Position numbers and translations under genes: made by a program. DNA of 24,000 nt. It comes from Candidatus Polarisedimenticolaceae bacterium (GTDB lineage: Bacteria > Acidobacteriota > Polarisedimenticolia > Polarisedimenticolales > DASUFT01). Location of the stretch: NCBI GenBank assembly GCA_036274395.1, contig DASUFT010000099.1, positions 1 to 24,000 of the forward strand, read 5' to 3'. Each line of letters begins with the position of its first letter. Position 1 is the stretch's first letter. This document shows positions 156 to 17,393 of the stretch, piece after piece. A model generated the notes under the pieces. That model ran no database searches. It was given only the letters and a program-made list of their open reading frames with translations, and had not been told where the DNA came from.

Positions 156-521
156 ATGGCCGACCTCGTCCTCTACGACGGGACCTGTGCCCTCTGTCAC
201 GGGGTGGTGCGCTTCCTGATCGCCAGGGACCGTGCCGGCACCGCGTTCGTCTTCTCTCCCCTGGCCGAAGCATCCACCGCGGAAACCGTGCGCGTGCAGA
301 CCGAGGGCGGCGTCCTACTCACCCGTTCGGACGCCGTCCTCTACCTCCTGGAGCGGGTCGGCGGCGTGTGGCGCGTCCTCGCCCTCGCGGGACGCGTCGT
401 CCCCCGCAAGCTGCGGGACGCGGCCTACACCGTGGTGGCCCGCTCCCGCTACCGCGTGTTCGGGCGCACCGCCACCGCCTGCCCGGTGGTTCCCGAGCAC
501 CTCCGGGCGCGCTTCCGCTAG
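156..521 (+). CDS. DCC1-like (DUF393) thiol-disulfide oxidoreductase family protein
   Basis: 121-aa ORF with the N-terminal LYDGTCALCHGVVRF CxxC signature typical of the DCC/DUF393 family. GAGGGA lies about 6 nt upstream of the ATG. Confidence 0.85.
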   Translation: MADLVLYDGTCALCHGVVRFLIARDRAGTAFVFSPLAEASTAETVRVQTEGGVLLTRSDAVLYLLERVGGVWRVLALAGRVVPRKLRDAAYTVVARSRYRVFGRTATACPVVPEHLRARFR

Positions 522-3500
522 TTGGTCCCCGGCGCGATCGCCGACTGCCGCGCCAGCTCGTCCTGGGTGTAGGCGCGGCCGTTCTTGATCACCAGGCCCA
601 CGCTGGTGCTGTGGGTGATGTCGTCCAGCGGGTTCTTGTCCAGCACCACGAAGTCCGCGAGCTTTCCCGCCTCCAGCGAGCCCAGGTCGCCGTCCAGCCC
701 GAGAGTCTGCGCGGGGTAGAGGGTCCCCACCCGCAGCGCCTGCAGCGGGGTCATCCCGCCCTGCACGAAGGCCTGCAGCTCCCAGTGCGGCCCCAGCCCC
801 TGCATCTGTCCGTGCCCCCCCAGGCAGACACGGCCCCCCGCCAGCATCACGTCCTTGGCCGAGCGGGCCACGTCGACGTGGTGCCAGTCCTCGTCGTCCG
901 CCATCACGCTGCGGATACGGTTGGTCTCCGTGACCTGGGGCGGGACGAACCGCTTCAGGCGCGTGTCCTTCCAGAGGTCGTTGTGCTGAAGGAACCACTG
1001 GTCCCCGGAGAGACCCCCGTAGGCCACGAGCAGGGTGGGCGTGTAGGAGGTTCCGCTCTTGCCGAAGAGGGTGACCGCGTCCTTGCGCAGGGGGGCGAAG
1101 GGAAGGGCGTGCTCGATGGTGGTGTGCCCGTCCAGGATCATGCCCATGTTGGACTCGAAGTCGCCGCCGCCCTCGGGCACCACCATCATCTTCTCCTCCC
1201 GCGCGGCCTGGAGGATCCACTGGCGCTGCTCGCGCCGGGGCTGCATGTAGGACTTCACGGTGAAGGCGCCCAGCGCCTTCATGCGCCGCAGGTGCTTGCG
1301 GGCGTCGTCCAGGCTCTCCACCTTGGCCCGGTTGGGGTCCTCCGCGCCGTAGAGGATGTAGCCCGTGGAGAAGATGCGGGGCCCGGGCGTGAGGCCCGCC
1401 TCCACCATCTCGCTCTGGCCGAAGACCTCGAGCGTGCTCGCCGAGGGGTCGTGCGTCGTGGTCACGCCGTAGGCGAGGTTGGCCAGGTACTTCCAGGGCC
1501 GCTGGGGGAGGACGTCCAGGGTCGAGTAGTGCAGGTGGGCGTGCTCGTCGAACAGGCCGGGGATGATCGTCTTCCCGGAGACGTCCACGTGCTTGGCATC
1601 GGCCGGCAGGGTCATGGAGGCCGTCGGACCCACGGCCACGATACGGTCGTCCTTCACCACGATCGTGCCCTGCTCGATGACCTCGTCTCCCTTCATCGTG
1701 ATCAGCCGCGCCCCCGTGTAGGCGGTGGTGTCATGGGGCTTGTCCCGGGGAATGGAGAGGACGATCTCGATGGCCTGCGATTCCGGGAGCTTCGACTCCT
1801 CTTCTTCCTTCTTCTCTTCCTTCTTCCCCTTCCTGGGCTTCGCCGCGGCCTCCTCCTTGGCCTTCTCCTCCTCCGTCTTCGGCGGCGGGAACGCCTTCTC
1901 CAGGGAGAGGCGGCGGAACACCGGGCCGTGGATCCAGGTGATCGTCTTCCCCCCGTCCGCCCAGTTCACCCAGGAGCCGCCCTCGTCGGTCAGCTTGGTG
2001 AGGGGGAGCGCCGCGCCTTCCAGGGAGACGTCGACGGGATCCGAACCCACCAGGGGGAGCGCGGTCACCCAGGCGTTGTGCAGCTCGCTGGTGGCCACCC
2101 AGTGCTCGTCGGGGGAGACCACCGCCTCCTCGGCCCGGTCGAAGCGCAGGTGCACCTTCTTGTCCACGCCGTCCAGCCGCACGGAGGTGAGCAGAGCCTT
2201 GGGGACCGAGTAGGGCTTGGCGTCGGGATCGTCGTCCAGGTACCAGATGCGCTGGCCATCGGCGGACCAGGTGGGCCGCGCCATGCGCCGATTGGCGCCA
2301 CGGTTGGCGATCCCGGTCACGAAGTGGCTGGGGCCACCGAAGGCCGAGACCCAGTGGATCTCCTCCCACAGCTCGTCCGAGAGGTCGTCATCGCGGAAGC
2401 TGGCGCCGCTCCCCCGGACGTACACGACGCGCGAGCCGTCGGGGGAGAAGGCGGGATTGGCGTACTGGCCGGGACTCTCCGTGAGACGGCGGGGAGCCCC
2501 CTGCGTCTTCCCGTCCTGGCCCATGTTCACGGACCAGACGTGCCCTCCCTCCCGGTCGCTCCAGGTCACGAAGGTGAGCAGGTTCCCGTCGGCGGAGAAG
2601 GACGGCGCGTACTCCAGCGCCTCCCCCTCGGTGAGCCGCTCCGGCTTCCCGCCCGGCAGCGCCATCACGTACAGGTGGCCCACGGCGGAGAAGACCAGGT
2701 GCTTGCCGTCCGGTGACTGCACCGGCCAGCGCAGGATGCGGGCACGCAGCGTGTCGGCGCCCAGCTTCTGCGGGAAACGGACCGCCCTGGTCACCCGCTG
2801 CTCCACCCTAGCCGTGAAGGGGATCGGGCTGCGGGCGCCGGTGGCCGCGTCGACGCGGACGATCTTGCCGTCGGCCGTGGCCACGAGCGACTTCCCGTCC
2901 GGCATCCACGCGTAGCCGGGGAACACCCCGTGGGTGGCGAACCCCTCCTGGTTGTCCCGGGTGAGGCCGGTGGCGAGCTGGCGGGTGGCGCCCGTGGCCA
3001 GGTCCATGACCTCGAGCGCGGTCTTCGCCTCCACCCGCCGGATGAAGGCGAGCTGCTTCCCGTCCGGAGAGGGGAGGGGGGCGGCGGCGCCGCCCACCTC
3101 GCCGGTCAAGGGCTGGAGCTGCCCCGTCTTCCGGTCCAGGCGCTTGATCTGCCAGATGCCCTCGTAGGGATCCCGGTTGTACTGGTAGCGGGCGCCGCGC
3201 CCGGAGAAGAACAGGAACCTCCCCTCGCGCTCGAACGCGGGATCGGCGGCGTCCGGCTGGGCGTCCTTCTTCGTGACCTGCACGCCCTGTCCGCCGCGCA
3301 CGTGCCACATCCACAACTCGACGGTGCCCAGGGAGGAGGTGTCGGTGAGGCGCTTCCGCCCCACCAGCCACTGCCCATCCGGTGCCCAGGCGGGAGAATC
3401 GATCGTGCCCGACTTCTCGGAGCTGATCTGGCGCGCGTTCTTGCCGTCGAGGTCGCAGACCCAGAGGTTCTCGGTGCCGCCACGGTCGGAGGAGAAGGCC

Positions 3501-3889
3501 ACCAGCTTGCCGTCGGGGGAGAACCTGGGCGCGGCGTCGTAGCCCGGCCCCGAGGTGATCCGTGTCGCCTCGCCCCCCGCGATGGGCAGCAGGTAGAGGT
3601 CCCCCAGGAGCGAGAAGACCAGCCGCTTCCCGTCGGGGTGGACGTCCAGGGCGAGCCAGGTCCCCTCGTCCGTGGTGAAGGCCACGGTGTCGTAGGGCCC
3701 GTGGGGCGCGTCCACCTTCCAGTCCTTGCCGTCCGCCTTCTCTTCCTTCTTGGCCTCCGGCTTGGCCTTCTCCTCCTTCTCGGGAGAGGGAGGCGGGGGC
3801 TCGGGCGGGTGGTGGTCCCCGAGGTGAGCCCAGGACAGACCGGCGAGGGAGAGGGAAGCGATGGCGAGCGAGAGGGAGCGCAGACGCAT
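518..3889 (-). CDS. Secreted PD40/TolB-type beta-propeller protein fused to an amidohydrolase-superfamily domain
   Basis: The track ORF is 518..3925. I place the start at ATG 3889, which gives an MRLRSLSLAIASLSLAGLSWA signal-like N-terminus with GGAGGAGG immediately upstream. Repeated SPDG-type blade motifs (FSPDGK, PSPDGK, QSPDGK, FSADGN, FSPDGS, WSADGQ) indicate PD40 repeats. The C-terminal third carries the amidohydrolase HxH motif (FDEHAHLHY). Two K/E-rich low-complexity linkers are present. Confidence 0.85.
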   Translation of the reverse strand: MRLRSLSLAIASLSLAGLSWAHLGDHHPPEPPPPSPEKEEKAKPEAKKEEKADGKDWKVDAPHGPYDTVAFTTDEGTWLALDVHPDGKRLVFSLLGDLYLLPIAGGEATRITSGPGYDAAPRFSPDGKLVAFSSDRGGTENLWVCDLDGKNARQISSEKSGTIDSPAWAPDGQWLVGRKRLTDTSSLGTVELWMWHVRGGQGVQVTKKDAQPDAADPAFEREGRFLFFSGRGARYQYNRDPYEGIWQIKRLDRKTGQLQPLTGEVGGAAAPLPSPDGKQLAFIRRVEAKTALEVMDLATGATRQLATGLTRDNQEGFATHGVFPGYAWMPDGKSLVATADGKIVRVDAATGARSPIPFTARVEQRVTRAVRFPQKLGADTLRARILRWPVQSPDGKHLVFSAVGHLYVMALPGGKPERLTEGEALEYAPSFSADGNLLTFVTWSDREGGHVWSVNMGQDGKTQGAPRRLTESPGQYANPAFSPDGSRVVYVRGSGASFRDDDLSDELWEEIHWVSAFGGPSHFVTGIANRGANRRMARPTWSADGQRIWYLDDDPDAKPYSVPKALLTSVRLDGVDKKVHLRFDRAEEAVVSPDEHWVATSELHNAWVTALPLVGSDPVDVSLEGAALPLTKLTDEGGSWVNWADGGKTITWIHGPVFRRLSLEKAFPPPKTEEEKAKEEAAAKPRKGKKEEKKEEEESKLPESQAIEIVLSIPRDKPHDTTAYTGARLITMKGDEVIEQGTIVVKDDRIVAVGPTASMTLPADAKHVDVSGKTIIPGLFDEHAHLHYSTLDVLPQRPWKYLANLAYGVTTTHDPSASTLEVFGQSEMVEAGLTPGPRIFSTGYILYGAEDPNRAKVESLDDARKHLRRMKALGAFTVKSYMQPRREQRQWILQAAREEKMMVVPEGGGDFESNMGMILDGHTTIEHALPFAPLRKDAVTLFGKSGTSYTPTLLVAYGGLSGDQWFLQHNDLWKDTRLKRFVPPQVTETNRIRSVMADDEDWHHVDVARSAKDVMLAGGRVCLGGHGQMQGLGPHWELQAFVQGGMTPLQALRVGTLYPAQTLGLDGDLGSLEAGKLADFVVLDKNPLDDITHSTSVGLVIKNGRAYTQDELARQSAIAPGTN
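1796..1834. repeat. 39-nt uninterrupted polypyrimidine (plus strand) / polypurine tract
   Basis: Read directly as ctcctcttcttccttcttctcttccttcttccccttcct. On the minus strand it encodes the KKEEKKEEEE linker of the amidohydrolase protein. Confidence 0.9.
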
Positions 3890-3994
3890 GGATCCTCCTC
3901 CGGCAAGGGCGCGGAAGGGTTCCATACGTGGGGGGCCGGAGCAAGTTCGCGCCAGGCAGCCAGTTCGCCGGCCAACGCGTTTAACATCGCGGGG

Positions 3995-4600
3995 ATGACG
4001 CGCGGCGGCTGGCTAGCCTCGAGCCTGGCGATGGTGGCGCTTGTGGGCGCCTGTGGTCCGGGTGTGGTGCGCGAGCTGACCGTCTCCTCGGCTCCGGTCC
4101 CGCCCGGAACCTACACGCGTCCCGCATTTCGACCGGCGGTCACCCTCGAGCTTCACGAGGGCTGGACGCCCGTGAACGGGTTCGACGATTTCTTCGACGT
4201 CGAGCGGGATGTCGGCAGCCCGGACGTGATCGCCGTCCAGATCGCGTGCCCGCGGGGATTCGTCGGCCGAGCGGGGGTCCAGCCCGCCGATACCCCGGGG
4301 CAGGCGCACGTGGTGCTGTCCGAGAACCCTGGCCTCACGATGGGGCCGTCGAACGACTGCAGGATCGGCGGGCTCGTGGGGCAGGTCTTCGACGTCGAGA
4401 ACGGGTCGGGGCGGCACGTCGGCATCATGGAGCTCAGTCCCGGGACGCTCGGGATCGATCCGGGCCGGAAGCTGCGGATCGCCTGCTTCTCCACCCCGCA
4501 CGGGCTCGTGGCCGTCATGGTCGGAGGCTCGGTGGCGAGATGGAAGGACGCGGAGGCTGCGGCCCAGCCGGTACTGGACTCGATCCGCTTCACTCCCTAG
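3995..4600 (+). CDS. Hypothetical lipoprotein
   Basis: This is the in-frame ATG at 3995 within track ORF 2930..4600. The N-terminus MTRGGWLASSLAMVALVGAC has a lipobox (LVGAC). The upstream part of the track ORF is a shadow of the minus-strand gene. No family recognised. Confidence 0.7.
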   Translation: MTRGGWLASSLAMVALVGACGPGVVRELTVSSAPVPPGTYTRPAFRPAVTLELHEGWTPVNGFDDFFDVERDVGSPDVIAVQIACPRGFVGRAGVQPADTPGQAHVVLSENPGLTMGPSNDCRIGGLVGQVFDVENGSGRHVGIMELSPGTLGIDPGRKLRIACFSTPHGLVAVMVGGSVARWKDAEAAAQPVLDSIRFTP

Positions 4601-5046
4601 CGCGCGGCACTGGACGTTTCCGCCCAGCCGCGGAGGAGAGCGCGGTCCTCCTCGCTCAGGCGTGCTTCCGGATGCATGCGCAGATAGTTCGGGAGCGGCA
4701 TCTTCCCCTCCTGCACCTCGTCCCACACCTTGGCCGCCACTCGCGCGCGCTTCCTTGCGCTGGCCCGGTTCCACTCCTGGAAGTTCAGCTCCTTGCGTCC
4801 CTCGTGGACGTCGTCGGCCACCCTCCAGGACACCGGAGCCACGTAGGCGTACCAGGGCCAGCGCGTCTGGTTGGAGTGGCAGTCGAAGCAGGAGCGCTGC
4901 AGCACGGCCAGGACGGGCGGCGGTGCGGGGACGACGCCCTGCTCGGGCGGGTTGCTCCGGTCCACGGGGACGAGCTGGATGCCCGCCACCAGGACGAGCG
5001 CCCCCAGGAGGAGGATGCGAAGCCAGCGCCTCACGCCGCGGGCCAT
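4597..5046 (-). CDS. Haem-binding-domain (CxxCH) membrane-anchored protein
   Basis: 149 aa from ATG 5046 (MARGVRRWLRILLLGALVLVAG TM/signal anchor). It has a CFDCHS haem-c type motif followed by WPWYAYVAPVSW, as in the Haem_bd domain family. The start overlaps the stop of the upstream gene by 16 nt. Confidence 0.75.
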   Translation of the reverse strand: MARGVRRWLRILLLGALVLVAGIQLVPVDRSNPPEQGVVPAPPPVLAVLQRSCFDCHSNQTRWPWYAYVAPVSWRVADDVHEGRKELNFQEWNRASARKRARVAAKVWDEVQEGKMPLPNYLRMHPEARLSEEDRALLRGWAETSSAAR

Positions 5047-6245
5047 ACCGCCACCGAGGAGCCCACCCAGTCGAGGCCCTTGTTGTGGTCCACCCCGTGC
5101 ATCTTCCCCCGCGACAGGCGGACGAGGTTGATGGCCAGCGTCATGCGATCCTCGCCGTCCGGCCGGAGGAACATCATGCGGATCTCCGCCTTCACCCCGG
5201 CGCCGTCCGGCGCGATCAGCGCCGGAGCGTAGACCACCTTCTCCTGGAGAAGCCAGTGCGCCTGCTCCCCCTCGGGGATGCTCTCGATGAACGCGCGGTC
5301 CACGTCCACCTGCACGCCCTGGCCGGCGAAGGAGAACAGCGGTTTCAGGATGTAGCCGGAGAGATCGTCGGGGAGCCGGTCCACCTCGGAGAGGATGCGG
5401 GTGCGCGGCACCGCGGGGTGGTCGAGGTGAGGGAGGGTGGCCTTGGACCAGAGCCAGTACCACGTCGGGTGCGCCGCCCACACCACGTCCAGGTCGTCCC
5501 GGTAGTCGAAGGGGAGCACGGTGCGCCTGCGCTCCAGCTCGTCGAAGACGATCCGGTGCAGGATCCGCCGCACGGGCACGTACCGCTCTCCCAGGGGGGC
5601 CAGCAGGCGCCGCCCCTCGCGCTTCAGCTCGGTGGCGCACACCGCCCGCACACCCAGCAGGCGGGCGGTGGCGTGGAAGTCGGGACGGGTCTTCTGCGAG
5701 GCGGGATCGAGATCGAGGAGCACCACCTCGTCGGGGGCGGCGTCGGCGAGCACGGTGCGCCGCAGGAGGTCGAGGTACCCCTCGCGCGCTAGGTTGGAGA
5801 AGAGTCCCGTCCACCGCTCCGGCATGCCGGGGATGGCCGCCAGGACCTCCCCCCAGATCTCGCTCTGCACGAGCTGCATGCCGTAGAGGGAGGAGAAACC
5901 CTGCAGCTCGATGAGGCGGGGGACGAGGCGCCCCTCCCCGTCCTGGGCGATGGCGAGGTCGATGGAGTTGAAGTGGGGAAGGGCGTCCCGGCCCGGCGTG
6001 CGGTAGCGCTCGGGGACCGCAGCCTCGCCGGCGGCGAGGATCTCCGGCCGCCGGAGCTGCTCCTGGATCTCGCCGGCCACGCGCACGCAGGCCTCGCGCA
6101 GGTCGTCCGGGAGCAGCAGGGGCGTTTCCGCCAGCCTGAACTCGAAGCGCGGGGTGGCCAGGCGCTCGTCCATGAGCGCGCACATCTGCCGGTAGAGGTG
6201 GGGCCGGTAGTTACGGTTGAAGATGGGCCGGAGACGGGGATCCAT
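5031..6245 (-). CDS. Uncharacterised 404-aa protein, putatively a circularly permuted ATP-grasp-like ligase
   Basis: The start is ATG at 6243-6245 (MDPRLRPIF), overlapping the upstream stop as ATGA. The upstream part of track ORF 5031..6719 is a shadow frame. The order of elements resembles circularly permuted type-2 ATP-grasp proteins: IDLAIAQDGEGRLVPRLIELQGFSSLYG (E-x-N/Q-like segment) comes early, ILKPLFSFAGQGVQV (glycine-rich loop) comes late, then KAEIRMMF and LVRLSRGKMHGVDHNKGLDWVGSSV. That similarity is judged by eye only. Confidence 0.5.
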   Translation of the reverse strand: MDPRLRPIFNRNYRPHLYRQMCALMDERLATPRFEFRLAETPLLLPDDLREACVRVAGEIQEQLRRPEILAAGEAAVPERYRTPGRDALPHFNSIDLAIAQDGEGRLVPRLIELQGFSSLYGMQLVQSEIWGEVLAAIPGMPERWTGLFSNLAREGYLDLLRRTVLADAAPDEVVLLDLDPASQKTRPDFHATARLLGVRAVCATELKREGRRLLAPLGERYVPVRRILHRIVFDELERRRTVLPFDYRDDLDVVWAAHPTWYWLWSKATLPHLDHPAVPRTRILSEVDRLPDDLSGYILKPLFSFAGQGVQVDVDRAFIESIPEGEQAHWLLQEKVVYAPALIAPDGAGVKAEIRMMFLRPDGEDRMTLAINLVRLSRGKMHGVDHNKGLDWVGSSVAVWPAA

Positions 6246-7279
6246 CAGACAAGCGCGTCCGCGTCCACCAGGAAACGGCTGTCCCGCATGATCGGCTCGC
6301 CGTCGAAGTCGAGATCGAAGCGGCGCCCCACCACGTCCACGTGGGTGGTGGAGCTCCAGGTGGCCCCGGTGTGCTCGGCGTAGGGATGCCCGAAGGCCAG
6401 GTGCAATCCCGGCAGCTTCTCGTCCTGGAGGATCTGCCCGATGCAGTCGCGCAGGGCGAGGTTGGTCCCCAGCGCCAGCTCTCCCACCCGGTCGCTGTTG
6501 GCGTCGGTGGAGGTGTAGGCGCGGAAGTCGTCCACGATCTCCTGGCGGGGGCAGGTGAGACCCACGATGCGCGAGTCCTCGATCTCGATGCGCAGCGGGT
6601 GCTCGGTCATGCGCCCGTACTTGTTGGCCAGCCAGTCCCCCAGCACGCCGTCCACCACGAAGACGCCGTCCACGCGGGCGGGAGAGGTGAACACCTCCCC
6701 GCCCGGGAGGTTCCCCCACTTCTCCGGGCGGATGATCCCGGAGGTGGGGATCCAGCGGATCTCGGGAGAGAAGGTGGCGGTCAGGCGCGTCCCCGCCGGG
6801 CTCGTGGCCGTCATGGTGCGCGCGGGGCGCACCCGTTCCAGCACCCAGCGGCAGAGGGCGTCCACCCGCCGGAAGTCGGCGCGCATCCCTTCCACCATGA
6901 TCTCGGGGGTGATGTTCACCATGTGCCCGTGGCGGATGCGGCGGCGGTTGACGATCGCGGTCATGGCCACGCGGCTGGGAAGCTCCCCCCGCTGGGCCTG
7001 GGCGGCGAAGACGGAGACGTCGGCTTCCTCGAGGGCGTCCGCGATGGGCTGCGGCAGCACCGTGGTCGGCCGCTGCACATGCTCCTCCAGGACGAAGGCC
7101 GAGACCTTCGCCTGCGCGGCCCGCAGTTGCCGCAGGAGCGCCGCCCCGATGGGCAGGCAGGCGTCGTCCGTGATCAGCACGGCGCGCTCGCCCGGCCGCA
7201 CGGCCAGGCAGGTGAAGACCGCGTTGCGGGCGCCGGGCTCGAACGCGGGATCGTAGGGGAGCGTGTCCAAGTCTTTCAT
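6245..7279 (-). CDS. M29-family (AmpS/PepS-like) aminopeptidase
   Basis: 344 aa from ATG 7279 (MKDLDTLPYD). The C-terminal block VGELALGTNLA...ILQDEKLPGLHLAFGHPY...SSTTHVDVV matches the M29 thermophilic metalloprotease pattern (GE.alGtN ... l.DEK..G..H.A.G ... H.D.v). ATGA overlaps are present at both ends. Confidence 0.85.
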   Translation of the reverse strand: MKDLDTLPYDPAFEPGARNAVFTCLAVRPGERAVLITDDACLPIGAALLRQLRAAQAKVSAFVLEEHVQRPTTVLPQPIADALEEADVSVFAAQAQRGELPSRVAMTAIVNRRRIRHGHMVNITPEIMVEGMRADFRRVDALCRWVLERVRPARTMTATSPAGTRLTATFSPEIRWIPTSGIIRPEKWGNLPGGEVFTSPARVDGVFVVDGVLGDWLANKYGRMTEHPLRIEIEDSRIVGLTCPRQEIVDDFRAYTSTDANSDRVGELALGTNLALRDCIGQILQDEKLPGLHLAFGHPYAEHTGATWSSTTHVDVVGRRFDLDFDGEPIMRDSRFLVDADALV

Positions 7280-8409
7280 GTCCTCACGGCGGGAACGTCC
7301 AGGCCGACCTCGGTCTCCTGGACTACGAAATCCATCACGGCCTTGAGGTCCCCCGTCCTCCGGAAGACCTCGATCTGGCGCTCCGCCCCCGTCCCCTGGG
7401 CCACGATCTCCCGCGCCTTCTCGCACCAGGCCCGGGTGCCCAGGTCGTCCACCACCTCGTCCACGAACTCCAGGAGCTCCTCGAGCAGGCTCTGGTGCGG
7501 GACCTCCTCCTCCTTGCCGAAGTCGATGAGGAGGGCCTTCGTCCCCCAGCGCGCCGCCCGCCACTTGTTCTCCATGATGAGCGCCCGCCGGTAGGGACGG
7601 AAGCTGAGGTTCTGGAGGCGCAGCAGGGCGAGCTTGGCGGTGATGGCCTGGAACAGGGCGGCGATGACCAGGGTCTCCTCGTAGCGGAGGGGGATGTCGC
7701 AGATCCGGTACTCGAGGGTGGCGTAGCGGGGATGGGGGCGCACGTCCCACCAGATCTGCCCGCCGTCCAGGATGCAGCGCGTCTTCACCAGGAGGTCCAC
7801 GAAGCTCTGGAACTCGGCATACGAGGTGTAGAAGTCGGGGATGTTGGTGCGGGGGAACTTGTCGAAGACCTTGCAGCGGTACGACATCCACCCCGACTCC
7901 CGGCCCAGCCAGAAGGGCGAGTTCACGGAGAGGGCCAGGATGTGGGGGAGGAAGTAGCGCGCCTGGTTCATGATCTGGATCTGCATCTCCCGATCCTCGA
8001 CCCCCACGTGCACGTGCAGGCCGAAGATCAGGTTCGCGCGCGCCACCATCTGCAGGTCGTGGATGAGGCGCTCGTAGCGGGGGTTCCCCTCGCTGATGGG
8101 GACGTCGGCCCAGTGGGAGAAAGGATGGGTGCCGGCGGCCGCGATCCGGAGCCCGTTCTCCCGCGCCAGGACCGCCAGGTTGGTGCGCAGCGACCGCACC
8201 TCGCGGCGGGCGGCCTCGATGTTCTCGCACACGGAGGTGCCCAGCTCCACCACGGGCTGGTGCAGCTCGGGCTTGGCCCGTCCCTGCATGCGGCGGTCGG
8301 CGGCGTGGAAGATCTCCGCCACGTGAGAGCGCAGCTCCCGGGTCACCGGGTCGATGACCTGGAATTCCTCCTCGATGCCGATGCTCAGGGAGGGCGCCGT
8401 CATGGGCAT
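7276..8409 (-). CDS. Carboxylate-amine ligase, YbdK / glutamate-cysteine ligase family 2 (GCS2)
   Basis: 377 aa. The hallmarks LSIGIEEEFQVID, ELHQPVVELGTSVC, GTHPFSHW, FGLHVHVG, SVNSPFW and WWDVRPHPRYATLEYRICD are characteristic of the GCS2/YbdK family. Confidence 0.9.
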   Translation of the reverse strand: MPMTAPSLSIGIEEEFQVIDPVTRELRSHVAEIFHAADRRMQGRAKPELHQPVVELGTSVCENIEAARREVRSLRTNLAVLARENGLRIAAAGTHPFSHWADVPISEGNPRYERLIHDLQMVARANLIFGLHVHVGVEDREMQIQIMNQARYFLPHILALSVNSPFWLGRESGWMSYRCKVFDKFPRTNIPDFYTSYAEFQSFVDLLVKTRCILDGGQIWWDVRPHPRYATLEYRICDIPLRYEETLVIAALFQAITAKLALLRLQNLSFRPYRRALIMENKWRAARWGTKALLIDFGKEEEVPHQSLLEELLEFVDEVVDDLGTRAWCEKAREIVAQGTGAERQIEVFRRTGDLKAVMDFVVQETEVGLDVPAVRT

Positions 8410-8413
8410 GGCG

Positions 8414-9364
8414 TCACCGTGTGGAGGGGGCGCGGCGCAGCCGCTCCGTCCAGCGCCCGGAGAGCTCGAAGGGGCGGGGGTGCTGCACGCGGTCGATGAG
8501 GAACTCGGAGGCGTTTTGCAGCACCCAGGCGAAGTTGTCCTCCCCCACGGAGAAGAGGTCGCAGTCGGGCGCCGGGTTCATGAAGTCGATGGCGATGGGG
8601 ATCCCGTCGCGCACCGCGAACTCCAGGGTGTCGAAGTCGTATCCCAGGGCCTCGCAGAGGGCCAGGCAGTCCCGCTCGATCCGCTTCAGCAGCTCCGGGT
8701 CCCCCGGTCCCGCGTCGCGCACGTAGCGGCGCTCGAAGGGCATGCGCGGGTCGTAGCGCATGATGCGCACCCGCTCCCGCCCCAGGCAGTAGCAGCGGTA
8801 GTACTCGGTGAACTCGATGGCCTCCTGGGCCATCATGCACAGGGAGTGGGTGAGATCGTAGGCGGCGAAGAACTCGCCCGGGTCGTGGACCTTGTAGACG
8901 TCCCTCCACCCGCCCCCGTCCGCCGGCTTCAGGAAGATGGGGAAGCCCAGGTACTCGAAGACGGAGTCCCAGTTCAGCGGGTACTCGAGGTTGGTGAAGG
9001 TCTCGCTGCTGGTGTTGGGCGGGTGCTTCTTGTGGGGGAGGAGCACGGTGCGGGGGACCGCCACCCCGGCTTGCTCGGCGAGGACGTTGTCCAGGAACTT
9101 GTCGTCGGTCGACCACCAGAAGGGGTTGTTGACGACCTGCACCCCCTTGGCCGCCTCCGTCTTCAAGAAGGTGCGGTAGAACGGCACCTCGTGGCTGATG
9201 CGGTCGACGATGAGGTCGTAGCGGGGGGGCGCGTCCTGGCGGAGCGGCCCCAGCCGCACCGGCTCCGCCGCCACCGCTCCCCCGGACCGGCGGCCGATCT
9301 CGGCGGCCAGGGCGGGCGGGAAGGACCGCTCCATTCCGTAGAGGATTCCGATCTTGTGGGGCAA
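8414..9364 (-). CDS. ATP-grasp domain ligase (RimK / glutathione-synthetase-like fold)
   Basis: The track ORF is 8414..9394 (TTG start). I prefer TTG at 9364 because GGGAGG sits 6 nt upstream. ATP-grasp hallmarks are PIFLKPADGGGWRDVYKV (Lys plus glycine-rich loop), MMAQEAIE, and a late LEFAVRDGIPIAIDFMNPAPD (E-x-N-type metal-binding segment). Confidence 0.8.
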   Translation of the reverse strand: MPHKIGILYGMERSFPPALAAEIGRRSGGAVAAEPVRLGPLRQDAPPRYDLIVDRISHEVPFYRTFLKTEAAKGVQVVNNPFWWSTDDKFLDNVLAEQAGVAVPRTVLLPHKKHPPNTSSETFTNLEYPLNWDSVFEYLGFPIFLKPADGGGWRDVYKVHDPGEFFAAYDLTHSLCMMAQEAIEFTEYYRCYCLGRERVRIMRYDPRMPFERRYVRDAGPGDPELLKRIERDCLALCEALGYDFDTLEFAVRDGIPIAIDFMNPAPDCDLFSVGEDNFAWVLQNASEFLIDRVQHPRPFELSGRWTERLRRAPSTR

Positions 9365-9433
9365 GGGAGGCCTCCCGTCGCTTGCAGCCCGCAACTATAC
9401 GAGGAACGGCCGCACCGGGGCAAAGGAGACGGG

Positions 9434-9802
9434 TCAGGCCCTGCTGAGGTAGCTCCGGGGAACGAATACGTTCCGCGCCCGAAAGGGTGGGGGCGACTCC
9501 AGCATCAAGCGCAGGCGCAGCTCGAACCCCCGGGCGGGAAACGCGAAGAAGGGCTCGGGACTGCCGACCCGTTCCACCCAGGAAGGCGTCGGGGTCGCGG
9601 TTTCCCGGCAGAGAGCGCTGACCACTCCCGCCACCAGACCCTCCAGCTCTCCGGAGGCGCCGATGGGCTCCTCGATCATCGCGCGACGGCGCTCCGGCGT
9701 TGCGCGACGGAATGCATCGACGAAGGCGTTCACGGCGCGCTGGAAGCTCCCATCCTTCTGGCGAGCAGCGCGCGCGAGCTGCAGGCATTCCACGGCGGTC
9801 AC
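9434..9802 (-). CDS. Hypothetical 122-aa protein (no family recognised)
   Basis: The GTG start at 9800-9802 overlaps the stop of the upstream small ORF as GTGA. G/C third-position bias is present but visibly weaker than in flanking genes, with about 22 of 122 codons ending in A/T. No His residue and no obvious catalytic motif. Confidence 0.6.
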
Positions 9803-9969
9803 CGGGGATCTCCGAGCGGGTAGTAGCGCAAGACGACCTGCAGCGCATCCTGCACGGTCATGATGCCGAGCCTGGAGACCAGCAGCTCGACCCGCCGGTC
9901 CGCTGCCGCCACCAGATCGTCCAGCCGCTGCAGCGCGGCCAGGATCTGCTCCCGGCTGAGTGTGTGCAC
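9799..9969 (-). CDS. Small 56-aa ORF (absent from the supplied ORF track because it is under 60 aa)
   Basis: My own translation gives (GTG)[58 protein letters not shown] third-position bias is strong. The TGA stop overlaps the GTG start of the 122-aa ORF. Confidence 0.4.
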
Positions 9970-9982
9970 GGCCGGCAGCGTA

Positions 9983-9988
9983 CTAGAA
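9983..9988 (+). promoter_or_regulatory. Candidate -10 hexamer (TAGAAT) for the esterase gene
   Basis: TAGAAT lies in the 46-nt divergent spacer 9970..10015. It is followed by the GGGGAGGGGGA Shine-Dalgarno-like run and the TTG start at 10016. No convincing -35 was seen. Confidence 0.3.
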
Positions 9989-10015
9989 TGCCGCCCTTTT
10001 CGGGGAGGGGGACCT

Positions 10016-10729
10016 TTGCACCGCGAGCACTACCGCTGGGACAGCCCTGCGCTTTCGCGCTCCATGGAGCTCCTCTGGTACGGGAACTGGGGGCGGCCCA
10101 TGCTGATCTTCCCCACCTCCCTGGGGAGCTGCAGCCAGAACGAGGACTGCGGCCTGTTCCGCCAGGGCCTTGCCGGGAAGGTGGACGGAGGCGAGGTCCA
10201 GATCTGCTCCGTGGATTCCATCGACGGGGAGATCTGGTACAACCGCGGCGCCCACCCCGGCTGGCGGATGCACCGCTACCTGCAGTGGGAGCGGTACCTC
10301 CTGGACGAGGTGCTCCCCCTCCTCAAGCACAAGGCGCAGCGGGAGGACGTCATCCTCTACGGCGCTTCCTGGGGCGCCTTCCACGCCATGAACTTCGCCC
10401 TGCGGAACCCGGGAGTGGCTTCCCGGGTGATCTGCTTCTCTGGCATGTACGACCTGCACCGGATGCTCGACGGCCACTGGGACGACACCTGCTACTTCAA
10501 CTGCCCCACGGCCTACGTCCCCAACTACCCGCAGGAGCAGATCGAGCGCACGCGGCACATCGGTTTCGTGCTCGCCACCGGCGAGCAGGACCACCTCGTG
10601 CAGGACACCCGTCACTTCGCGGGCGTCCTCCGGGGGAAGGGCCTGAACGTGGTCGAGGAGATCTGGGGCGGCGTCTTCGGCCACGACTGGAACTTCTGGG
10701 CGGAGCATCTGCCGCGCTTCGTGCCCTGA
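10016..10729 (+). CDS. Esterase-family alpha/beta hydrolase
   Basis: The track ORF starts at 9860, but that N-terminus is Ser/Arg-rich junk overlapping the minus-strand small ORF. TTG at 10016 is preceded by GGGGAGGGGGA. A GxSxG nucleophile elbow (YGASWGAFHAMN) is present, plus a late HDW (GHDWNFW) as the candidate catalytic His region. Confidence 0.75.
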   Translation: MHREHYRWDSPALSRSMELLWYGNWGRPMLIFPTSLGSCSQNEDCGLFRQGLAGKVDGGEVQICSVDSIDGEIWYNRGAHPGWRMHRYLQWERYLLDEVLPLLKHKAQREDVILYGASWGAFHAMNFALRNPGVASRVICFSGMYDLHRMLDGHWDDTCYFNCPTAYVPNYPQEQIERTRHIGFVLATGEQDHLVQDTRHFAGVLRGKGLNVVEEIWGGVFGHDWNFWAEHLPRFVP

Positions 10730-13719: not shown

Positions 13720-13962
13720 ATGCAGACGAAGATCCAGAAGTGGGGGAACAGCCTGGCCGTGCGGATCCCCAAGTCCTTCGCGGAGGAAGCCGGGGTTTCC
13801 GCTGGCTCTCAGGTGGACCTGACCGTGCGTGAAGATGGCCTCCTGGTTCGACCGGCACGGGCGCGAAGGCCCAAGCTCCGGGACCTTCTTCGAGCGGTCA
13901 AGAAGTCCAACCTTCACGGCGAAGTGAAGACCGGGAAGCCCGTCGGGAAGGAGACCTGGTAG
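13720..13962 (+). CDS. mazE: AbrB/MazE/SpoVT-family antitoxin
   Basis: ATG at 13720 with GGAGG 7 nt upstream. MQTKIQKWGNSLAVRIPKSFAEEAGV is the classic swapped-hairpin MazE/AbrB N-terminus. It sits 3 nt upstream of a PemK/MazF gene. Confidence 0.85.
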   Translation: MQTKIQKWGNSLAVRIPKSFAEEAGVSAGSQVDLTVREDGLLVRPARARRPKLRDLLRAVKKSNLHGEVKTGKPVGKETW

Positions 13963-13965
13963 TCG

Positions 13966-14310
13966 ATGGGCCGGCCTCCCGCCCGTGGCGATCTCGTCTG
14001 GCTCGAGTTCGACCCCCAGGTTGGAAGCGAACAGGCGGGTCGCCGTCCAGCGCTGGTCCTCTCGCCCAAGGAGTACAACGGCAAGGTGGGTCTGGCGCTG
14101 TGCTGCCCGATCACCTCGCACGCGAAGGGCTACCCGTTCGAGGTCGCCCTTCCGGAGAGTCTTGGAATCCGGGGCGTCGTCCTCTGCGACCAGATCAAGA
14201 GCCTGGACTGGCGGGGCCGGCGCGCCCGGAGGATCACCTCCGTGCCAGACGAGGTCATGCACGACGTGACGGGGCGAGTCCTGGCCCTGGTCGATCCCGA
14301 CGGTTCCTAG
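13966..14310 (+). CDS. mazF: MazF/PemK-family endoribonuclease toxin
   Basis: 114 aa. The motifs RGDLVWLEFDPQVGSEQAGRRPALVLS and CCPITSHAKGYPFEV and VVLCDQIKSLDW are typical PemK/MazF signatures. Confidence 0.9.
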   Translation: MGRPPARGDLVWLEFDPQVGSEQAGRRPALVLSPKEYNGKVGLALCCPITSHAKGYPFEVALPESLGIRGVVLCDQIKSLDWRGRRARRITSVPDEVMHDVTGRVLALVDPDGS

Positions 14311-14752: not shown

Positions 14753-14840
14753 GGCCCTTGTATACCTCCGGATCGACAATCGCGCAGCAAGATAGAACTT
14801 TTCGCGCCTAACAACACTAACGTCGAGAGAGGTGAGCGCG

Positions 14841-17393
14841 ATGAGATCCAGCAGTGGGGTGGCCTTCCTGACCCTCGTGACTCTCGCAGGCCTGCTAGTT
14901 TCACCGACGCCTTTGCCCGCCGCCGTGGTGCCGGTGGACGACGGCGGAGGTGGGGGCGGAGGTGGGGGCGGGGGCGGCGGGGGGACGCCACCTCCACCTC
15001 CACCACCCATTTGCACGCGCACCTCGCGGCTCAATCTCTCGCCGCTGGCCCAGGCCGTCCTCACGAACATCGAGACCACCTCGGGCGCCCTGGCCAAGTC
15101 CCCGACCGTGCAGAGCCTGCTCCTGACCACGTGCAATAAGCTCGAGTCTGTCCGTGTGGACGGGCCGGACATCTACGCAGGCATCCGGGATGTGATCGCC
15201 CGAGCCGATCACGAGGTGGAGATCGCCTACTACGTCTGGGAGAACGACTGTCATGCGGCACAGAGGATCGGGGAAGGTCTGATCGCCGCGCAGGCCAATC
15301 AATCGGCCTCACAGCCTCTCATCGTCCGGTTCCTCGTGGACGAGCACGCGGACTCCATCAACGACCTGCTCGTGTCTCGCTCGGACTGGATCAGCGGGGG
15401 CCTGGACACGCATCGCGTCCAGCTCCAATTCGGGGAGTCGGAGAGGAACACGGTCCTGGACGCCAACTTCCACGACAAGTACGTCGTCGTGGATGGGATG
15501 TACGTGGTCGTGACCGGCGCCAACGTGGAGAAGGTGCACAACGCCAAGACACCTCCGCAGCAGCCGTGGCACGACACCGCCTACATCGTGCAGGGGGATG
15601 CCGCGCTCTCGGCGCTCTCCGCCTTCGAACAAGTGTGGTACCGCGAGGGGACGGAGTTCTTCGAGTGCAACAACGGGGGGTGCTGGCAGCGAGCGTCCCG
15701 GTTCCCCGATCCCCCCCGGGACTGGTTGCCCGAGGAACCCAACGTCGTGGGAAACGTGCCGGTGCTGGCGGTGGGCAAGAAGCACGACTCGGGAGGGCTC
15801 GATCCCCCGAACGAGACCAACAACCCGCAGGACATCGCCTGGCTGACCGTGATGGACGGCGCGTACTACCGCATCGACATCGAGTCCCCCAACCTGAACG
15901 ACGACGCCTTTCGCGCAGCCGTCACCCGGGCGGTGGGGAGGGGGGTGACCGTCCGACTGATCGCCGCCGAAGGATTCAACGATGGGGGAGCAGATCTGCT
16001 GGGTGGGGACAACCAGGAGGTCGTCGGCGACCTGAGAGAGGACATCCGCGCGCTGTATCCCAGCCAGGCCTCCAAGTTCCAGGTGCGCTGGTACAGTCGG
16101 GACGGGCGCGAGATGATCAACGGGAACGAGGACGGGAGCGGCGCCAACCACACGAAGTACATGAGTGTCGACGATCAGCTGGCGATCGTCGGCTCGGGGA
16201 ATCACGAGACACCGGCCTGGAACATCTCCCACGAGTTCAATCTGTTGCTGGACGATCCGACCGCGACGGGACAGCTCCAGAACGCCGTGTTCACCCGCGA
16301 CTGGAGCTCGTCCATCGGCCGTTATGCGGAGATGTACGAGGGGAACGGCGGCACGCAGGACATGATCTGCCCCATCGGCATGCCTTTGGGTGTGGCGCGC
16401 ACGGAGCGGCTGGACGGGGATCCCTGCTCGAACGACGAGACGCGTTCGCTCCTTCTGCACGACGTCACCACCGGGCAGGTCCTGCGCCTCTACGACGACC
16501 CCGACGGACGATGGCAGGATGACGATTGGACGGAGATCCGCATCAAGAGGCCAGTGCCCCGGAAGTACATCGACACGTACGAGACATCCTCCGAGGACGA
16601 CGACGTCCGCGTGATCGCCCATCGGAACAACGGTCTGGACGGCAAGGTCTCGTTCGCCGAGGTGGCCTTGAGCCCGGCTGGGCCGGTGCTGGATCTCTAC
16701 GAGGGGAACGGAGGTACGCAGAACCTCGTGTGCTCGCGGAGGATCGGTGGACCGGAGACGATCGACCTCACCCAGGACGCGTCATGCAACAACGACGAGG
16801 CCAGGTCGCTCGTCCTCTACGACTGGCCCGCGGACCGCGTCATCTTCCTCTACGACGATCCCGGTGGAAACACGCAAGACGACTGGACGGCTATCGTGCC
16901 CAAGCGCGCGCTCCCCGCGAGCACGGTGAGCTCGTTCGAGACGGAGGTTTCGAACGCGGACTTCTCCGTCTATGCCTTCCGGAACAACGGACTCGACGGG
17001 AAGGTCTCCCGGATGCGGATCGGCAGCCCGAGCGAGATCGTTCCTATGGTCTCCTTCTACGAGGGAAACGGGGGCACGCAGAACAAGACCTGCGACGTCA
17101 ACCTCTACACCCGCATGGTTGACTTCACGAGCAACAGCCTGGGATGTGACAACGACGAAGCGCGCTCCCTCGTTCTCTCCTTCGCCAAGGTGGGCACCGT
17201 CCTCGATGCCTTCGACGATCCGGATTGCACCACCAACGACGACTGGACGCGTATCGTGGTGAAGCGTGAGCTGGGCAGGAAGCTGATCGGCACCTTTCAG
17301 TACTCATTTGAGGATGCCGACGTCGACGTCGACTTCCACCCGGACAACGGGCTGGATGGCAAGGTGTCCTGCATCCGGATCACCGTGCCCTAG
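14841..17393 (+). CDS. Secreted phospholipase-D-superfamily (dual HKD) protein with a Gly/Pro tract and three C-terminal ~120-aa repeats
   Basis: ATG at 14841, with GAGAGAGGTGAG upstream; the track starts at GTG 14832. The signal peptide is MRSSSGVAFLTLVTLAGLLV. A G14-T-P7 tract follows. Two HxK(x)4D motifs are present: HDKYVVVDGMYVVVTGAN and HTKYMSVDDQLAIVGSGN. Three tandem repeats then start with YEGNGGTQ. Confidence 0.85.
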   Translation: MRSSSGVAFLTLVTLAGLLVSPTPLPAAVVPVDDGGGGGGGGGGGGGGTPPPPPPPICTRTSRLNLSPLAQAVLTNIETTSGALAKSPTVQSLLLTTCNKLESVRVDGPDIYAGIRDVIARADHEVEIAYYVWENDCHAAQRIGEGLIAAQANQSASQPLIVRFLVDEHADSINDLLVSRSDWISGGLDTHRVQLQFGESERNTVLDANFHDKYVVVDGMYVVVTGANVEKVHNAKTPPQQPWHDTAYIVQGDAALSALSAFEQVWYREGTEFFECNNGGCWQRASRFPDPPRDWLPEEPNVVGNVPVLAVGKKHDSGGLDPPNETNNPQDIAWLTVMDGAYYRIDIESPNLNDDAFRAAVTRAVGRGVTVRLIAAEGFNDGGADLLGGDNQEVVGDLREDIRALYPSQASKFQVRWYSRDGREMINGNEDGSGANHTKYMSVDDQLAIVGSGNHETPAWNISHEFNLLLDDPTATGQLQNAVFTRDWSSSIGRYAEMYEGNGGTQDMICPIGMPLGVARTERLDGDPCSNDETRSLLLHDVTTGQVLRLYDDPDGRWQDDDWTEIRIKRPVPRKYIDTYETSSEDDDVRVIAHRNNGLDGKVSFAEVALSPAGPVLDLYEGNGGTQNLVCSRRIGGPETIDLTQDASCNNDEARSLVLYDWPADRVIFLYDDPGGNTQDDWTAIVPKRALPASTVSSFETEVSNADFSVYAFRNNGLDGKVSRMRIGSPSEIVPMVSFYEGNGGTQNKTCDVNLYTRMVDFTSNSLGCDNDEARSLVLSFAKVGTVLDAFDDPDCTTNDDWTRIVVKRELGRKLIGTFQYSFEDADVDVDFHPDNGLDGKVSCIRITVP
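14943..15008 (+). repeat. Homopolymeric-amino-acid coding tract (14 Gly, Thr, 7 Pro) containing a canonical G-quadruplex motif at 14952..14984
   Basis: The codons are ggc gga ggt ggg ggc gga ggt ggg ggc ggg ggc ggc ggg ggg acg cca cct cca cct cca cca ccc. G-runs lie at 14952-56, 14964-68, 14970-74 and 14979-84, separated by loops of 7, 1 and 4 nt. Confidence 0.85.
16335..17390 (+). repeat. Three tandem in-frame repeats (363, 360 and 333 nt) inside the PLD-like gene
   Basis: Repeat units start at 16335, 16698 and 17058 with tacgagggRaacggNggNacgcag (YEGNGGTQ). Shared landmarks are C...C(N/S/D)NDE(A/T)RSL(V/L)L, (Y/F)DDP, DDWT.I..KR and NGLDGKVS..(R/E)(I/V). Pairwise identity is roughly 45-50% by eye. 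Confidence 0.85.

Follow-up and report, generated by a model that had tools for sequence, protein, structure and literature searches.

A conserved module of carboxylate-amine ligases of three architectures, a divergent esterase and an exchangeable slot in Acidobacteriota and other bacterial phyla

We analysed a 24,000-nucleotide stretch of DNA (hereafter the window; about 70% G+C) from a Candidatus Polarisedimenticolaceae bacterium (Acidobacteriota; contig DASUFT010000099.1), in which an original prediction, made from the sequence alone, had described seven minus-strand open reading frames (ORFs) as one translationally coupled operon that joins three carboxylate-amine ligases to an M29 aminopeptidase. 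We find that the unit conserved between genomes is a module in which a serine esterase gene, overlooked by that prediction, faces away from genes for a classical ATP-grasp ligase, a GCS2-family ligase, an optional hydrolase and a circularly permuted ATP-grasp ligase of 404 amino acids (aa). The enzyme content foreseen for the cluster, ATP-dependent carboxylate-amine ligases of three architectures together with an M29-type peptidase, is borne out by hidden Markov model (HMM) searches and structure models. On balance we think it probable, from the sequence evidence presented here, that the ligases act sequentially in the cytoplasm to make a gamma-glutamyl-type peptide or a peptide-amine conjugate, which dedicated hydrolases would turn over.

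Enzymes encoded by the cluster

The features on which the analysis draws are the following, in window coordinates.

10016..10729, plus strand: serine esterase (PF00756, esterase D / FphF-like), from HMM search, PDB relatives and presence in 26/26 loci
9799-9969, minus strand: p56, a 56-aa ORF, lineage-specific insertion
9434-9802, minus strand: p122, a 122-aa ORF, lineage-specific insertion
9394..9423, minus strand: predicted sigma70-like promoter, TTGCCC-18-TATAGT, a promoter-pattern match directly 5' of the ATP-grasp gene
8414..9364, minus strand: classical ATP-grasp ligase, 316 aa, with TTG start and GGGAGG Shine-Dalgarno sequence (AlphaFold2/Foldseek)
7276..8409, minus strand: GCS2/YbdK-family carboxylate-amine ligase, 377 aa (PF04107, NF010039, YbdK structures)
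6245..7279, minus strand: M29-like metallopeptidase, 344 aa, accessory member (PF02073, AmpS profile alignment)
5031..6245, minus strand: circularly permuted ATP-grasp ligase, 404 aa, of the GspS/YgiC/eukaryotic glutathione-synthetase type (AlphaFold2/Foldseek)
4597..5046, minus strand: membrane-anchored Haem_bd (CxxCH) protein (PF14376), overlapping the 404-aa gene by 16 nt

All seven minus-strand ORFs were found where the original prediction had placed them. Coding is supported for the five large genes by a G+C content of 0.91-0.96 at third codon positions (GC3) with low values at second positions; the signal of p122 is weaker (GC3 0.81), and p56 has a GC3 of 0.88. The predicted junctions were recovered at 9799-9802 (GTGA), 8410-8413 (a 4-nt gap), 7276-7279 (ATGA) and 5031-5046 (the 16-nt overlap), as was the 69-nt gap at 9365-9433 given an ATP-grasp start at TTG 9364, but the junction at 6243-6247 reads TGATG, a 1-nt overlap of stop and start, and not ATGA.

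The first ligase has a classical ATP-grasp fold, as proposed. Its AlphaFold2 model (predicted local distance difference test, pLDDT, 86.6; predicted template modelling score, pTM, 0.86) has Ddl, ArgX/LysX, VanA and RimK as top Foldseek matches (E 4e-15 to 3e-12, TM score 0.6-0.67). Sequence searches give only sub-threshold HMM matches to RimK/LysX/Ddl: the protein scores 24.3 bits against a cut-off of 143.4 on rimK_fam, 20.7 against 275.6 on LysX and about 16 against more than 450 on the Ddl and VanG models, reaches no GshB model, and has no Pfam family at E <= 0.01, belonging to a family that lacks a Pfam model. Residues K146, G150-G152, Q180-E181, E248, D260 and N263 are invariant across 30 homologues and, judged by sequence position, sit at the places expected for the ATP-binding lysine, the glycine-rich loop and the acidic/asparagine Mg ligands. 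More than 7800 homologues exist, under the JGI name 'glutathione synthase/RimK-type ligase-like'.

For the second ligase the GCS2 assignment is secure, resting on PF04107 (2.4e-60; 204.8 bits against 21; residues 11-288), on NF010039 (503.4 bits against a cut-off of 371; residues 3-372) and on similarity to solved YbdK structures (1tt4, 3.9e-40; 1r8g, 3.1e-39). The protein falls below the cut-off on models named glutamate--cysteine ligase (e.g. 331 against 409 bits), and the name of its top-scoring model is the uninformative 'carboxylate-amine ligase'.

The circularly permuted ATP-grasp architecture suspected from the motif order of the 404-aa protein was confirmed by an AlphaFold2 model (pLDDT 87.9, pTM 0.89) and Foldseek, so that a ligase fold is present. 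All of its 29 best PDB matches are circularly permuted ATP-grasp structures (E 1e-12 to 1e-5), the next match having an E value of 0.36; they include 3n6x, yeast, human and plant glutathione synthetases, E. coli YgiC, GspS and the fungal enzyme Cp1B (9cjn, E = 1e-8). The protein has no Pfam match even at E <= 10, PF03738 and PF14403 included, and its family too is without a Pfam model; three of 43 distant relatives match PF14403 (best 1.3e-5) and one matches PF03738, and the family profile matches YgiC at 2.7e-3 across the lysine/glycine-loop motif. There is no N-terminal CHAP amidase domain, the ligase fold spanning the protein end to end, and neither NCBIfam nor PADLOC gave a match to it. 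An identical sequence is on record as a hypothetical protein of a Candidatus Polarisedimenticolaceae metagenome-assembled genome. The family is large, with 4572 matches among the scored candidates and 1016 clusters (50% identity) at E <= 0.001. The characterised enzymes nearest to it (glutathione synthetase, GspS, YgiC/YjfC) ligate the carboxylate of a small peptide to glycine or spermidine. In PMC12568646, YgiC and YjfC are given as peptide-spermidine ligases (citing Pederick 2023) and Cp1B as a stand-alone ligase that condenses a small acid with an amino acid. One distant relative, P0126 (870 aa, 43% identical), has an N-terminal sodium:solute symporter domain (PF00474, 7.8e-37), as a fusion or a called fusion, and several others have N-terminal extensions of about 180 aa with no Pfam match, three of which, when read, proved alanine-rich with a hydrophobic signal-like start.

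The M29 assignment likewise stood, with PF02073 matched at 43.8 bits against a gathering cut-off of 27, although the match is partial, covering residues 155-305 of the protein and, in the C-terminal part of the model only, positions 206-356 of 406. A profile of ten M29-like homologues matches Staphylococcus aureus AmpS (1zjc) at 3e-4, and in this alignment E195, E267 and H293 fall on the conserved EVF, GE and H-L-A motifs of AmpS; H313-x-D315, beyond the span of the alignment, is invariant in the ten homologues. Because these residues align with AmpS motifs or are invariant, the protein is probably an active metallohydrolase, provided that the metal ligands of AmpS are Glu, Glu, His, His and Asp, as reported with the AmpS structure.

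No gene accompanies the ligase operon more constantly than that of the esterase on the opposite strand. The esterase is a PF00756 serine hydrolase (4.7e-09) with the nucleophile motif GASWG, and its nearest solved relatives are FphF (6vh9, 2e-05) and S-formylglutathione hydrolase (1.3e-3). We re-assigned its start to TTG 10016, which is preceded by GGGGAGG and matches the point at which its homologues begin (MHRE...). A plus-strand gene overlapping p56, from ATG 9860, was rejected, 9860-9969 having a non-coding G+C pattern on that strand.

Conservation and extent of the module

We gathered 80 genome loci via the 404-aa protein and mapped all window proteins onto them; independent look-ups via ATP-grasp homologues agreed with the outcome, and the related loci number 89 overall (given with the prefix L below). 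Gene order could be judged in 55 informative loci, those whose sequence extends 4.5 kb or more upstream of the 404-aa gene. The conserved order is a divergent esterase followed, on the other strand, by ATP-grasp, GCS2, then an M29 gene, a gene of a second family (c20) or nothing, and the 404-aa gene. The synteny across genomes that the original prediction proposed as a check was found in 26/55 informative loci, where ATP-grasp and then GCS2 lie 5' of the 404-aa gene in the same orientation, and the divergent esterase is present in 26/26 loci with ATP-grasp and GCS2. Wherever the 404-aa protein shares 55% identity or more with that of the window (17 loci), the full arrangement occurs. Syntenic loci come from Acidobacteriota (Polarisedimenticolia and part of Thermoanaerobaculia), Gemmatimonadota and Eisenbacteria.

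The identities of all components drop in parallel with distance, which fits a co-inherited unit. Component identity is 50-75% across classes and phyla, and the genes sit among housekeeping genes; a tblastn search of the ATP-grasp and 404-aa proteins against 72,556 plasmids gave no match. Intergenic gaps are short or overlapping (3-120 nt upstream of the 404-aa gene, with a 1-nt overlap in the window). Even in a rearranged locus, L087, the esterase/ATP-grasp, GCS2 and c20/404-aa genes remain within 11 kb and c20 is still the partner of the 404-aa gene; in this locus the ATP-grasp and GCS2 genes are separated by an amino-acid permease gene and an Amidohydro_2 gene.

The slot between GCS2 and the 404-aa gene holds M29 in 14 of the 26 syntenic loci, c20 in nine and nothing in three, so that M29 cannot be counted as a constant member, being missing or replaced in 12. 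The c20 family, of about 330 aa, is unannotated and unrelated to M29, and takes the M29 slot in Thermoanaerobaculia (L075:5488-6480, L035:4696-5757, L086:9082-10077 and 12 other loci). Its GxCHSFG (GICHSFG) and NHHPE motifs are invariant and resemble the triad of class-I glutamine amidotransferases and C26 hydrolases. It has no PDB or NCBIfam match, and among eight members searched one gave a weak match to PF00117 (E = 0.046). That either M29, an unrelated family or nothing occupies the slot fits an exchangeable auxiliary hydrolase, and suggests one that would act on an N-terminal, possibly gamma-glutamyl, residue.

Three of the seven predicted members lie outside the module. Counterparts of p56 and p122 occur in 0/80 loci, and elsewhere only in the closest relative, L083, where their neighbours are a gene for HEPN and, for its MNT partner, a C-terminal fragment. 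The L083 insert (L083:3526-4799) comprises HEPN, the MNT fragment, a 50-aa ORF and the p122 homologue; relative to it the window has lost about 780 nt, p122 is 79% identical, and p56 is degenerate, with 25 residues of similarity. Neither small protein has a match in Pfam, NCBIfam or PADLOC. Between p122 and the ATP-grasp start lies TTGCCC-18-TATAGT, the only promoter-like match in 4000-10400, where 0.2 would be expected, and comparable -35/-10 matches occur at a similar distance 5' of the ATP-grasp gene in 17/31 upstream regions, the window included. The region between esterase and ATP-grasp measures 651 nt in the window and mostly 20-200 nt in other loci. Taken together, the absence of p56 and p122 elsewhere, the toxin-antitoxin remnants of L083 and the position of the promoter match identify the two ORFs as a lineage-specific toxin-antitoxin-like insertion in the divergent promoter region, and give the ligase operon a predicted promoter of its own.

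At the other end, the haem-binding identity of the CxxCH protein was upheld (PF14376, 4.7e-42, CFDCH motif), but its membership of the system was not: the gene occurs in 0/80 loci, and outside the window only in L083 and L084, which belong to the same genus and have a 404-aa protein 88% identical to ours. It is a genus-specific add-on, co-transcribed only there. With an internal promoter match (9423-9394) and ends that are not conserved (p56, p122 and the haem gene), co-translation of all seven ORFs as a single operon was rejected.

Some neighbours recur or stand out in individual loci. A membrane protein of about 1000 aa with a spermine/spermidine-synthase domain (PF01564) is encoded no more than a few kb from the 404-aa gene in 28/89 loci, all of them Thermoanaerobaculia (e.g. 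L086:13017-14963, L088:14170-14933, L070:9896-12943); this may be plain synteny or may hint at a polyamine as amine substrate. Genes connected with stress or redox occur in single loci: a glyoxalase-family gene lies between c20 and the 404-aa gene at L088:10142-10504, a ferritin gene beside the esterase at L081:6488-7000, and an Fe-SOD gene upstream at L089:2678-3304. A PLD-like (PLDc_2) protein is encoded at window 14832-17393 (plus strand), about 4 kb from the esterase, and one directly adjoins the esterase in L083 (L083:1301-2650). Just downstream of the cluster, window 518-3925 (minus strand) encodes a 1135-aa protein with PD40/TolB-like beta-propeller repeats, a C-terminal amidohydrolase domain and an apparent N-terminal signal sequence, a gene not conserved alongside the cluster. 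A MazF/PemK-type toxin gene (PF02452, 2.8e-28) occupies 13966-14310 on the plus strand, immediately preceded by an ORF, ending at 13962, for a possible antitoxin. An Rfam search of the whole window returned no riboswitch or other RNA family.

Proposed pathway and alternative explanations

Enzymes of the GCS2 and ATP-grasp superfamilies work through acyl-phosphate intermediates. In the route whose substrates, step order and product we infer for the module, the GCS2 enzyme would first convert a carboxylate (most probably that at the gamma position of glutamate) into an acyl phosphate and couple it to an amino acid or amine. The classical ATP-grasp ligase would then add one residue at the free carboxylate of this product, and the GspS/YgiC-like 404-aa ligase would couple the carboxylate of the resulting small peptide to a polyamine or an amino acid. 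The outcome would be a metabolite resembling a tri- or tetrapeptide, or else a conjugate of peptide and amine, of the kind represented by glutathione and glutathionylspermidine. Finally, the M29 peptidase would trim an N-terminal residue, a task that in other lineages might fall to the possibly GATase1/C26-like c20, and either of these together with the esterase would turn over the product or its adducts. The core has no conserved small ORF for a precursor or carrier, nor do the short spaces between its genes leave room for one, and this speaks against a ribosomal precursor as well as a carrier protein. Given their strong conservation and housekeeping surroundings, the genes look more like part of primary or cofactor metabolism than like a sporadic secondary-metabolite cluster.

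The nearest parallels are the routes to glutathione and glutathionylspermidine (GshA, GshB, GspS, YgiC/YjfC), which likewise use successive acyl-phosphate ligases of the same three kinds; moreover, GspS is accompanied by an amidase domain of its own, much as the window has a hydrolase beside the last ligase. The cluster departs from the glutathione route in that its GCS2 enzyme is of YbdK type and its ATP-grasp protein fails the GshB, RimK and LysX cut-offs, and from GspS in that its 404-aa protein has no CHAP amidase domain and no PF03738/PF14403 match. Furthermore, gshA, gshB and gss are not clustered with an esterase, whereas the window genes all are. The fungal pathway to E-64, which is independent of nonribosomal peptide synthetases, resembles the proposed route in its successive stand-alone amide-bond formers, among them the Cp1B matched by the 404-aa model, but the window cluster is bacterial and has no warhead-forming oxygenase.

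Amidoligase operons have also been predicted from comparative genomics, reportedly by Iyer, Abhiman, Burroughs and Aravind in 2009, with the combination of permuted (CP) ATP-grasp, Alpha-E, transglutaminase and Anbu as an example. The window shares with such operons the presence of different amidoligase folds and peptidases in one operon and a permuted ATP-grasp. It differs from the Anbu-type system in its partners, an esterase with M29 or c20, and in a GCS2 enzyme that is not permuted; neither the 17 window proteins scanned nor the called genes of related loci gave a match to Alpha-E, transglutaminase or Anbu/NTN-hydrolase. By their defining features, then, the cluster is not a GshB, RimK, LysX, Ddl, GspS or Anbu-type system. 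In agreement with the original prediction, the searchable literature yielded no characterised pathway for this gene combination, although the 2009 survey might list the neighbourhood. That operon-linked ligases catalyse successive ligations is a general statement quoted in PMC4431377.

A more specific form of sequential synthesis would make the product a new low-molecular-weight thiol. Here the GCS2 enzyme would form gamma-Glu-Cys, the ATP-grasp ligase would act in the manner of GshB, and the 404-aa ligase would add a polyamine, giving a tripeptide-polyamine as in glutathionylspermidine/trypanothione, with the esterase D-like enzyme hydrolysing thioester adducts. Consistent with this are the 331 bits that the GCS2 protein attains on the glutamate--cysteine ligase model, albeit below the cut-off of 409, the JGI label 'glutathione synthase/RimK-type' of the ATP-grasp protein, the match of the 404-aa fold to glutathione synthetases, GspS and YgiC, and S-formylglutathione hydrolase among the PDB relatives of the esterase; the glyoxalase (L088), ferritin/Fe-SOD (L081, L089) and spermine-synthase-like (28/89 loci) genes add weak hints of context. 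Nothing indicates cysteine as a substrate, however; the best GCS2 model is uninformative, the ATP-grasp protein reaches no GshB model, and each context hint is limited to one or a few loci of one class, where plain synteny is possible. We therefore hold the thiol version to be a tentative idea, and a rather unlikely one.

Several observations weigh against sequential synthesis by three ligases in one pathway. The substrates of GCS2-family enzymes are poorly defined, and LysX, ArgX and RimK, structural neighbours of the ATP-grasp protein, act on protein C-termini. That c20 is a hydrolase is possible, going by its motifs and the weak PF00117 match. Linkage of the three ligases in 26/55 informative loci is set against 29/55 in which the 404-aa gene is found apart from the module, and because it stands alone in these, it is a facultative associate of the module; a single pathway for all three ligases is likely without being obligatory. 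Most Thermoanaerobaculia have the gene after tadA-dnaX-ybaB-recR-mglB-mglA, near recA, whereas its surroundings differ among Polyangiaceae (2-hydroxyacid dehydrogenase, enoyl-CoA hydratase, sulfatase, histidine kinase, FTHFS). Conversely, L089:6237-10410 holds esterase, ATP-grasp, GCS2 and c20 with no 404-aa gene within 7 kb; this module is followed by CofD-like and nucleotidyltransferase genes.

The same distribution is what would be expected if esterase, ATP-grasp, GCS2 and hydrolase formed the module and the 404-aa ligase were an independent enzyme, like E. coli YgiC/YjfC, placed downstream by chance. Besides the 29 loci in which it lies apart, the heterogeneous Polyangiaceae contexts and the L089 module without it, there is the case of L061, where 4.5 kb lie between the 404-aa gene and the module. 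Chance placement nevertheless sits poorly with the persistence of adjacent, co-oriented genes in three or more phyla, with the close spacing or overlap noted above, and with the rearranged L087, where the gene is still paired with c20, the usual follower of GCS2; we accordingly regard independence of the 404-aa ligase as unlikely.

The original prediction had also allowed for tagging of a protein: the ATP-grasp and GCS2 enzymes would extend a protein or carrier peptide by residues at its C-terminus or on a side chain, and the peptidases would remove these again, by analogy with RimK-S6, LysW-LysX and Pup-PafA. The GCS2 superfamily is related to PafA/Dop, and the ATP-grasp model is structurally as near to ArgX/LysX and RimK as to Ddl. 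The cluster differs from LysW/LysX-ArgX and RimK-S6, however, in having no conserved carrier or target gene and HMM scores far under the cut-offs. It contains no candidate tag or carrier gene: no small ORF is conserved in or beside the core of any locus, p56 and p122, absent elsewhere, lack both a LysW-like zinc ribbon with C-terminal glutamate and a Pup-like C-terminus, and no partner of proteasome, Alpha-E or transglutaminase type was seen among the window genes scanned. Modification of a protein or carrier is thus very improbable. A role in utilisation rather than biosynthesis, in which an amine would receive a gamma-glutamyl group, in the manner of the Puu pathway, and later be set free by a gamma-glutamyl hydrolase, could account for three kinds of hydrolase (esterase, M29, c20) beside the ligases and for the permease and Amidohydro_2 genes of L087, but with no conserved oxidoreductase or aminotransferase, three ATP-consuming ligases that are difficult to justify in catabolism, and a permease in one locus only, we give it hardly any credence.

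Significance of the module

Sequential synthesis leaves room for a bolder suggestion, which we offer as speculation more likely to prove wrong than right: that the product is a new peptide cofactor of low molecular weight, in wide use among Acidobacteriota, Gemmatimonadota and related uncultured phyla, for instance a polyamine-conjugated gamma-glutamyl thiol. Such a cofactor would be a candidate bacterial counterpart of trypanothione or glutathionylspermidine, built by three stand-alone ligases and recycled by hydrolases.

The small-molecule metabolism of Acidobacteriota and Gemmatimonadota, two phyla abundant in soil, has hardly been explored. The module is compact (four to five genes) and strongly conserved, includes two large enzyme families that have no Pfam model, and is of a size that permits direct expression and assay. 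Should its product turn out to be a cofactor new to redox or stress metabolism, or a conjugate of peptide and polyamine, the gap closed would be on the scale of those closed by the discoveries of mycothiol and bacillithiol; should it be a more ordinary dipeptide-type metabolite, a function would still be assigned to thousands of 'hypothetical proteins'.

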